From Escherichia coli (lineage in GTDB: Bacteria; Pseudomonadota; Gammaproteobacteria; Enterobacterales; Enterobacteriaceae): a stretch of DNA of 64,000 nt. Positions 28,298 through 36,924 of the stretch are shown in pieces. The first letter of the stretch is position 1. The number at the start of each line of letters is the position of its first letter. Location: the NCBI RefSeq assembly GCF_044647545.1, contig NZ_CP172818.1; one strand, given 5' to 3'. Made by a program: the position numbers and the translations under genes. The notes under the pieces were generated by a model that did not search any database, was not told the DNA's origin, and saw nothing but the letters and a program-made list of their open reading frames with translations.

Positions 28298-30820
28298 ATG
28301 CAAAGGAAAACTCTATTGTCGGCCTGTATTGCATTAGCTCTGAGTGGTCAGGGTTGGGCGGCAGATATCACAGAGGTAGAAACCACCACAGGTGAAAAGA
28401 AAAATACCAATGTGACTTGTCCGGCAGACCCAGGAAAACTCAGTCCGGAAGAGCTTAAACGCTTACCCTCTGAATGCTCTCCTTTAGTCGAACAAAACCT
28501 GATGCCATGGCTTTCCACAGGCGCTGCTGCGTTAATCACGGCCTTAGCCGTAGTGGAACTAAACGACGATGATGATCATCATCATCGCAACAATTCTCCA
28601 CTCCCACCGACACCCCCTGATGATGAATCAGACGACACTCCAGTTCCCCCAACTCCTGGCGGAGATGAGATAATACCGGACGATCCGGATGATACGCCTA
28701 CACCTCCCAAACCGGTTTCGTTTAATAATGACGTTATTCTCGATAAAACAGAAAAAACGTTAACTATTCGCGATTCAGTTTTTACTTATACCGAGAATGC
28801 TGACGGGACTATATCTCTGCAAGATAGCAATGGTCGTAAGGCAACGATTAATCTTTGGCAGATTGATGAAGCGAATAACACTGTTGCCCTTGAAGGGGTG
28901 AGCGCAGATGGCGCAACGAAGTGGCAATATAATCACAACGGTGAGCTTGTTATTACGGGTGATAATGCCACAGTAAACAACAATGGCAAAACCACCGTTG
29001 ACGGTAAAGATTCCACCGGTACGGAAATCAACGGTAATAACGGGAAAGTGATTCAGGACGGCGATCTGGATGTCAGCGGCGGCGGTCACGGTATTGATAT
29101 CACCGGTGACAGCGCGACGGTGGATAACAAGGGCACCATGACCGTCACCGATCCGGAGTCCATGGGTATCCAGATCGACGGTGACAAGGCCATCGTCAAT
29201 AACGAAGGCGAGAGCACCATCACCAACGGTGGCACCGGCACCCAGATTAATGGTGATGACGCCACGGCAAACAACAACGGCAAAACCACCGTTGACGGCA
29301 AGGATTCCACCGGTACGGAAATCAACGGTAATAACGGAAAAGTTATTCAGGACGGCGATCTGGATGTCAGCGGCGGCGGTCACGGTATTGATATCACCGG
29401 CGACAGCGCAACGGTGGATAACAAGGGCACCATGACCGTCACCGATCCGGAGTCCATCGGTATCCAGGTTGACGGCGACCAGGCGGTTGTTAACAACGAA
29501 GGCGAGAGCGCCATCACCAACGGTGGCACCGGCACGCAGATTAACGGTGATGACGCCACGGCAAACAACAACGGCAAAACCACCGTTGACGGCAAGGATT
29601 CCACCGGTACGGAAATTGCTGGCAATAACGGGAAGGTGATTCAGGACGGCGATCTGGATGTCAGCGGCGGCGGTCACGGTATTGATATCACCGGCGACAG
29701 CGCAACGGTGGATAACAAGGGCACCATGACCGTCACCGATCCGGAGTCCATCGGTATCCAGATTGACGGCGACCAGGCCATCGTCAATAACGAAGGCGAG
29801 AGCACTATCACCAATGGCGGCACCGGCACTCAGATCAACGGTAACGACGCCACCGCGAATAACAGTGGAAAAACCACTGTTGATGGAAAAGATTCCACGG
29901 GTACCAAAATCGCGGGCAATATCGGCATTGTAAATCTGGATGGTAGCCTGACTGTTACAGGCGGTGCGCATGGTGTTGAGAACATTGGTGACAACGGCAC
30001 GGTTAACAACAAAGGAGATATTGTTGTTTCCGATACTGGATCGATTGGCGTGCTCATCAACGGTGAGGGGGCAACAGTATCCAATACGGGTGATGTTAAC
30101 GTTAGCAATGAAGCGACAGGGTTCAGCATCACAACCAACAGTGGGAAGGTTTCGCTGGCAGGCAGTATGCAGGTTGGCGATTTCTCGACCGGGGTAGATC
30201 TTAATGGCAACAATAACAGCGTGACGCTGGCGGCAAAAGATCTAAAAGTGGTCGGGCAGAAAGCGACGGGCATAAACGTTTCTGGCGATGCGAATACAGT
30301 GAATATCACTGGTAACGTTCTGGTTGATAAGGATAAAACCGCAGACAATGCGGCGGAATATTTCTTCGATCCATCCGTGGGTATCAACGTTTACGGCAGT
30401 GATAATAACGTGACGCTGGATGGAAAGTTAACTGTTGTATCAGACAGTGAGGTTACTTCTCGTCAGAGTAATTTATTTGATGGCAGCGCAGAGAAAACGT
30501 CAGGTCTGGTTGTGATTGGCGATGGCAATACCGTTAATATGAATGGTGGACTTGAACTGATTGGAGAGAAAAACGCGCTTGCAGATGGGTCGCAGGTTAC
30601 TTCCTTGCGCACAGGATATAGTTATACCAGCGTTATTGTCGTTAGTGGTGAGTCGTCGGTATATCTGAATGGAGATACGACAATCAGCGGAGAATTCCCT
30701 CTGGGGTTTGCCGGGGTTATTCGGGTACAGGATAAAGCTTTGCTGGAAATTGGCAGTGGCGCTACGCTAACAATGCAGGATATTGACAGTTTTGAACATC
30801 TGGTGACAGTAGTACCCAGG
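28298..30820 (+). pseudogene. ydbA: autotransporter adhesin, N-terminal (signal peptide plus passenger) fragment truncated by IS2
   Basis: ORF begins MQRKTLLSACIALALSGQGWA (signal peptide), followed by a Pro/Asp-rich linker and G/T/N/D-rich beta-helix-type repeats; reading frame runs straight into the IS2 terminal inverted repeat at 30821. Confidence 0.85.
28967..29990 (+). repeat. tandem 294-bp (98-aa) coding repeats, about 3.4 copies, in the ydbA passenger domain
   Basis: Unit ATxNNNGKTTVDGKDSTGTEI.GNNGKVIQDGDLDVSGGGHGIDITGDSATVDNKGTMTVTDPES.GIQ.DGD.A.VNNEGES.ITNGGTGTQINGxD starts at about 28967, 29261, 29555 and 29848; copies 2 and 3 are about 94% identical at protein level. Confidence 0.85.
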
Positions 30821-30831
30821 TGGATTTGCCC

Positions 30832-36400: not shown

Positions 36401-36924
36401 CGATTGCATTTGGCAACACGAACAAAACGGCTGATACCGACGTGAAACAGCAGTACCTGGAGTTCCGCAGCGAAGGGGCGAAGACTTTCGAACCGAGCGA
36501 AGGACTGAAGGTTACGCCATATGCGGGTGTAAAACTGCGTCACACACTGGAAGGTGGCTATCAGGAGCGCAATGCCGGAGACTTTAACCTGAATATGAAC
36601 AGTGGCAGCGAAACGGCGGTGGACAGCATCGTCGGGCTGAAACTGGACTACGCAGGTAAAGACGGCTGGAGCGCTAGCGCTACGCTGGAAGGCGGGCCGA
36701 ACCTGAGCTACGCGAAGAGCCAGCGTACGGCAAGCCTGGCAGGCGCAGGCAGTCAGCACTTTAACGTCGATGACGGTCAGAAGGGCGGCGGCATCAATAG
36801 CCTGACAAGCGTCGGCGTGAAGTACAGCAGCAAAGAAAGTTCGCTGAATCTGGATGCGTACAACTGGAAAGAGGATGGCATCAGCGATAAAGGCGTGATG
36901 CTGAACTTCAAGAAAACGTTCTAA
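33428..36924 (+). pseudogene. ydbA: autotransporter adhesin, C-terminal fragment (passenger remainder plus beta-barrel translocator)
   Basis: Continues immediately after IS30; long ORF 33601-36924 is G/N/T-rich with beta-helix-like repeats and ends ...NFKKTF* (C-terminal aromatic residue typical of outer-membrane beta-barrels). Confidence 0.85.

Follow-up and report, generated by a model that had tools for sequence, protein, structure and literature searches.

How a very large surface-protein gene came to be broken by two insertion sequences (ISs) lying almost side by side, and whether the broken gene is native to the genome in which it is found, are the questions raised by a locus at positions 28298–36924 of a 64,000-nucleotide stretch of Escherichia coli DNA (contig NZ_CP172818.1), the whole of which we call the window. 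Two open reading frames (ORFs) on the plus strand, at 28298–30907 and 33601–36924, bracket two transposase-bearing elements there. We hold with high confidence, taking the explanation as a whole and including the chimeric context in which the locus appears to stand, that it is ydbA (b4492), a pseudogene of E. coli K-12 whose original product was a type Va (monomeric) autotransporter of 2020 aa belonging to the BigA/YdbA group.

Compared base by base with the K-12 strain MG1655, positions 27957–36939 are identical save for 30801–30820, and the annotation of NC_000913.3 at the matching positions gives ydbA as a pseudogene joined from three fragments, together with IS2D (insC2/insD2) and IS30C (insI2). 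A megablast search of 27800–37400 against 5,426 complete E. coli genomes returned full-length matches at 99.7% to K-12 strains, among them MG1655, C600 and J53. In the MG1655 copy (NC_000913.3 1465392–1474013) both elements sit at the sites and in the orientations seen in the window, the IS30 target duplication and the 3.2-copy array are unchanged, and the upstream region is equally AT-rich. The window copy departs from it in that 20 bp to the left of IS2 stand for 15 bp of ydbA, one AACCC of the IS2 target duplication is lost, and the neighbouring genes paaY, pdxI and ydbD are of the type found in strain ST648. Because the 20-bp patch replaces 15 bp of ydbA, the N-terminal ORF is 869 aa long in the window and 852 aa in K-12. 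The three gene fragments all lie on the plus strand. Fragment 1 (28298–30800), 100% identical to K-12, runs from a signal-peptide-like N-terminus through a Pro/Asp-rich linker, the BigA_N domain and the repeat array into further passenger sequence; fragment 2 (32157–32206) is the 50 bp between the two elements, its final CT being the left IS30 target duplication; and fragment 3 (33430–36924) holds the remaining passenger, the BigA_beta domain and an autotransporter beta-barrel domain, and ends in ...KKTF and a stop codon.

When IS2 with one AACCC and IS30 with one CT are excised, and the 15 bp of K-12 are used at the left IS2 junction, the result is a gene of 6063 nt, or 2020 codons, without an internal stop, which bears out the earlier note on this DNA in its estimate of an autotransporter on a scale of about 2000 aa. 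Strain VL40, in which the sequence is unbroken across both insertion sites, shows that the insertions were clean, with duplications of 5 bp and 2 bp. The reconstructed gene has full-length, single-piece matches at 100.0% (rounded) in PF9285, NCTC122 and other genomes. The discovery of an intact orthologue sharing both flanks had been set beforehand as the test of the proposed history, and PF9285 supplies one, so that the proposal stands: its ydbA (WP_001326908.1, 'BigA/YdbA N-terminal beta-barrel domain-containing protein') is an intact coding sequence of 6063 nt, at the same rounded identity and with a window-like array profile in Tandem Repeats Finder (TRF), and it sits between paaY and pdxI, whose products are both identical to those of K-12. 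It differs from the window copy in carrying neither IS2 nor IS30, and is presumably functional.

The VL40 allele does carry one IS2, at another site in ydbA than that of the window, and this genome (NZ_CM177011.1) is a case of independent inactivation of the gene, in a 6.2-copy allele with a single element elsewhere. In other genomes IS1, IS3 or ISEc68 is found inside ydbA, a gene present in roughly 3,100 E. coli genomes. The independent insertions in VL40 and these other genomes suggest that ydbA has been lost repeatedly.

That the product was an autotransporter follows from its domains. BigA_N (PF25784) covers residues 140–220 (28715–28957, plus strand; E 1.5e-32, 112 bits) and BigA_beta (PF25783) residues 1589–1672 (35626–35877, plus strand; E about 3.4e-26 to 3.7e-26, 91 bits), both above the gathering score, and this pair of domains places the protein in the BigA/YdbA subgroup. 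It is conceivable, although we regard it as very improbable, that the gene encoded some other kind of large beta-strand-repeat surface protein: in the full 2020-aa protein Pfam recognized BigA_N and BigA_beta only, and fragment 3 had no match by sequence among solved structures. However, the autotransporter beta-barrel domain (PF03797), unreported in the full-length scan, emerged when the C-terminal 449 aa were rescanned alone, matching over residues 222–420 of that segment (about 36238–36834, plus strand) with E 2.2e-19 and 70.6 bits against a cut-off of 26, as expected of a type Va barrel; the protein ends in ...MLNFKKTF, its terminal phenylalanine being the C-terminal aromatic residue of an outer-membrane beta-signal; and RefSeq names intact orthologues 'autotransporter outer membrane beta-barrel domain-containing protein'. 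At the other end, by eye only, the sequence MQRK is followed by the hydrophobic stretch TLLSACIALALSG and then by QGWA/AD, which resembles a signal peptidase I site. Other RefSeq names for orthologues ('pectate lyase-fold domain-containing', 'beta strand repeat-containing'), together with the G/N/T-rich periodic sequence, suggest a beta-helical or beta-strand-repeat passenger. The intact YdbA would then run from a Sec-type signal through the Pro/Asp-rich linker and BigA_N to a beta-strand-repeat passenger that opens with 98-aa units, and on through BigA_beta to a translocator of the 12-strand barrel type.

Among the closest known relatives of YdbA is the Salmonella autotransporter adhesin BigA, which has BigA_N, BigA_beta and the overall architecture in common with it and resembles it strongly across the C-terminal 800 aa (E 1.3e-253). 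Against the NCBIfam model auto_BigA (NF033178) the fragments score 308.9 and 844.7 bits, with E 1.3e-253 for fragment 3, and since these scores lie far below the curated cut-off of 3400 bits, YdbA is a BigA homologue and not BigA proper or its equivalog. In this comparison the 98-aa array and its copy-number variation were examined in E. coli alone.

The array itself occupies 28958–29911 on the plus strand, where TRF finds 3.2 copies of a 294-bp (98-aa) unit with a period of 294, 90% matches and no indels. BigA_N stops exactly where the first unit starts, so that the array follows directly on the domain. Three copies are full (28958–29251, 29252–29545 and 29546–29839, all on the plus strand), with pairwise identities of 91.5–93.2% in DNA and 92.9–95.9% in protein, copies 2 and 3 being 93.2% and 95.9% identical respectively; a fourth is degenerate, at about 60% in DNA and 55% in protein. 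An earlier count of 3.4 copies, with about 94% identity between copies 2 and 3, was thus close. Short-read assembly is well known to go wrong at near-identical 294-bp repeats, and the array could on that ground be thought a collapse or expansion artefact. There is very little probability in this: the intact PF9285 gene and the K-12 records that were inspected directly show this 3.2-copy array base for base, it is free of indels and stays in frame, and the arrays of other strains differ from it by whole, in-frame units. The last point also supports the suggestion that the repeats are a substrate for length variation. The alleles of the window, K-12 and PF9285 have 3.2 copies (6063 nt in their uninterrupted form); that of 22F46 has 6.2 copies and 6945 nt (+3 × 294), that of VL40 6.2 copies and its IS2, and that of 98223 7.2 copies and 7239 nt (+4 × 294). 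Allele lengths thus differ by exact multiples of 294 nt with the frame kept in all, and the three longer alleles agree with the window in locus, domain order and unit. The number of repeats presumably changes through unequal recombination or through slippage during replication.

The two elements that split the gene are both complete, and the coordinates and the spacing of 55 bp (32152–32206) first reported for them all hold. The first, at 30821–32151 on the minus strand, is 1331 bp long and identical to K-12 IS2D; its imperfect terminal inverted repeats were detected as 33-nt ends at 30829–30861 and 32110–32142 in an inverted-repeat search, and its two overlapping minus-strand ORFs, insD-like (30832–31737) and insC-like (31695–32105), contain HTH_Tnp_1 and rve/rve_3 domains in Pfam and are annotated by RefSeq with a 'programmed frameshift'. 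In length, in its imperfect inverted repeats and in its overlapping, frameshift-joined ORFs it is a typical IS2 of the IS3 family. The second, at 32207–33427 on the plus strand, is 1221 bp long and identical to K-12 IS30C, with 26-bp terminal inverted repeats at 32207–32232 and 33402–33427 and a 383-aa transposase (32269–33420) with HTH_38 and rve domains in Pfam. Its length, its inverted repeats, the size of the transposase and its helix-turn-helix and DDE make-up, and a 2-bp target duplication, of which the right copy CT lies at 33428–33429 by comparison with K-12, are all those of IS30.

Only the left end of IS2 departs from this regularity. A 5-bp direct duplication should surround the element, and K-12 IS2D does have AACCC on both sides, but in the window AACCC is found on the right alone (32152–32156, in agreement with the uninterrupted VL40 sequence), and on the left stands CCAGG, the duplication of another IS2 site. 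This one-sidedness points to a junction that was altered secondarily or is artefactual, rather than to a different element. The left copy is gone together with the adjoining ydbA sequence: at 30801–30820 (plus strand) the 20 bases TGGTGACAGTAGTACCCAGG, foreign to ydbA, stand in place of the 15 bases ATGGGACAAGAACCC of K-12. A divergent ydbA allele as the origin of the patch is ruled out: ST648-type strains have an IS2 inserted in a fimbrial gene, and the patch, taken together with the IS2 end, is an exact match to the left side of that insertion. Judged by this match, the ST648-type fimbrial IS2 junction is the source of the patch. The body of the window element, even so, is the IS2D allele of K-12, which differs at 2 positions from the ST648 fimbrial copy. 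In ST648-type strains (40 genomes) that copy lies within a fimbrial subunit gene with the target duplication CCAGG (NZ_CP008697.1 2443724–2445623), and an 'ECSE_1600 family autotransporter' pseudogene lies near it.

On our reading, what broke ydbA was a pair of independent, clean transpositions. IS2 entered in the orientation opposite to that of the gene with a 5-bp duplication of AACCC, and IS30, 50 bp further on, in the orientation of ydbA with a 2-bp duplication of CT. Of the 5,426 genomes, 356 have the exact junction of IS2, 55 bp and IS30. The three full-length matches sampled for it were ER1709, CY708 and C600, all with genomes of K-12 size, and none of the sampled matches had just one of the two elements at these ydbA sites. 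Together the elements part the passenger from the barrel, and it is likely that no surface-exposed protein could be made; with no translocator, the product of fragment 1 (869 aa here and 852 aa in K-12) would have no way to the surface.

Upstream of the gene, the region between paaY and ydbA (28040–28297) has a GC content of 24.8% against a window mean of 49.9%. The earlier note took this AT-rich sequence to be of the kind typically bound by H-NS, and the K-12 data agree: the paaY/ydbA intergenic region is one of 78 'promoter islands' of MG1655 and is entered as bound by H-NS on the strength of two chromatin immunoprecipitation (ChIP-chip) data sets, one published by Kahramanoglou et al. and the other by Oshima et al. 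(PMC3661553, Table 1). In an rpoZ mutant, both RNA polymerase occupancy and transcript level are reported to rise at a set of genes that includes ydbA (PMC5811629). A scan of the upstream region with the sigma-70 consensus gave 3 sites against 2.4 expected from shuffled sequence, which is no better. A tiny annotated ORF, ynbG, lies within the region on the minus strand (about 28071–28136; NC_000913.3 annotation). Transcription of an N-terminal fragment from this H-NS-bound sequence is still possible, and ydbA would be a dead adhesin gene held silent by H-NS.

The remaining question is to which genome the locus belongs, and here the surrounding DNA tells a different story from the locus itself. 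That the window is simply K-12 is ruled out, its flanks being 1.6–2.7% off K-12 and 99.99–100% identical to ST648-type genomes. Positions 1–9505 are 100% identical to strain ST648 (NZ_CP008697.1), 36916–64000 are 99.993% identical to it, and 27242–27968 are identical save for three 1-bp gaps; the right flank with pdxI and ydbD is 100% identical to ST648, ECONIH1, Ecol_881 and FDAARGOS_497. In strain ST648 itself pdxI comes directly after paaY, without ydbA, and a segment from feaR to paaX is also deleted. The runs that show no difference from K-12 (9470–11571, 20934–27313, 27957–30799 and 30821–36939) fall only where ST648 has no DNA, and the four points at which the sequence switches from one type to the other lie within intervals of 36, 72, 12 and 24 bp at the edges of these indels, with no K-12 single-nucleotide polymorphism (SNP) carried into the flanks.

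Between two of these runs lies a stretch of another character. Over 9.4 kb, at 11572–20933, the sequence is K-12-like with 31 substitutions and 25 indel columns per kb relative to K-12; this is where K-12 annotates feaB, tynA, paaZ and paaA–F, and in the window these genes are broken, with a longest ORF of about 200 aa. Substitutions are spread over the three codon positions as 76:72:114, against 84:49:424 and 18:3:150 in ST648-type blocks. The best full-length match for 11000–21000 reaches only 95.5%, and that for 18000–28297 reaches 98.5%. A novel lineage as the cause of the former figure is rejected, the low identity being explained by noise of a sequencing type, and 11572–20933 looks like an unpolished or low-coverage consensus in which consensus noise, and not divergence, separates it from K-12. 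The end of paaY (27379–28038) is altered too: just before the K-12-identical DNA its 3' end has two 1-bp deletions (about 27923 and 27956) relative to both K-12 and ST648, and the ORF is 219 aa long instead of 196 aa.

In our judgement the K-12 block in the ST648-type backbone is probably a chimera made at the level of assembly. The backbone natively has no ydbA, K-12 DNA appears only at its deletions, the patch comes from its own fimbrial IS2 and the neighbouring 9.4 kb is ridden with errors, and for these reasons the ydbA locus was probably stitched in during assembly. A mixed sample of K-12 and an ST648-like strain, reference-based gap filling with K-12, or a composite sequence would each be a route to such a result.

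The arrangement could instead be real, although we consider this unlikely: conjugation or transduction would have brought K-12-type DNA into an ST648-like strain, and homologous recombination would have refilled the feaR–paaX deletion and inserted ydbA::IS2::IS30, the left junction of IS2 being remodelled later by exchange with the strain's fimbrial copy. The genomes of E. coli are known mosaics of recombination, and K-12-identical and ST648-identical blocks do alternate cleanly in the window. Such an exchange, however, would need four crossovers within 12–72 bp of indel edges without the transfer of a single donor SNP, one of them in an interval of only 12 bp, which is below the minimal homology that RecA normally needs. 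Random errors at 5.6% over 9.4 kb, with every gene frameshifted, do not form a biological pattern; a swap of 20 bp of heterologous flank exactly at the K-12 IS2D site has no simple mechanism; and the combined K-12/ST648 arrangement is present in none of the 5,426 complete genomes, in which the best match to the locus is the 99.7% match to K-12. A small sign of K-12 in the backbone itself would favour recombination, in that the two mismatches to ST648 in the 27-kb right block carry the K-12 base, which may however be ancestral. These two, at 42820 and 55582, are the only mismatches in that block, and the K-12 base may have been kept there from an ancestor or may come from mixed reads. The more specific history, in which an ST648-like clinical lineage repaired two ancestral deletions with K-12-type DNA and the ydbA::IS2 junction was rewritten by an exchange of flanks with the fimbrial IS2, we think more doubtful still; if true, it would be an example of IS-mediated conversion that extends into non-homologous flanking DNA.

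Several points weigh against our account and should be set beside it. The assembly chimera is deduced from patterns in the finished sequence and not from the reads; 11572–20933 has a modest excess of third-position changes, and its template may not be exactly K-12; a recombinant of K-12 and an ST648-like strain, made in the laboratory or in nature, keeps the small probability given above; and we infer both the mechanism by which repeat number changes and the loss of function of the truncated protein.

The ydbA::IS2D::IS30C arrangement is already known, its annotation in the K-12 reference genome being of long standing; intact ydbA alleles are already in public genomes, and variation in the number of passenger repeats is a familiar theme in adhesins. 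The biological addition is accordingly small, and what is chiefly new is a caution about where the window sequence comes from. As the window appears to join the DNA of two strains to an unpolished stretch, statements about ydbA, the paa, tynA and feaB genes or the IS copies of 'this strain' need a check against the raw reads. For the gene itself, the series of 3, 6 and 7 copies offers a modest, usable marker for the typing of ydbA alleles.

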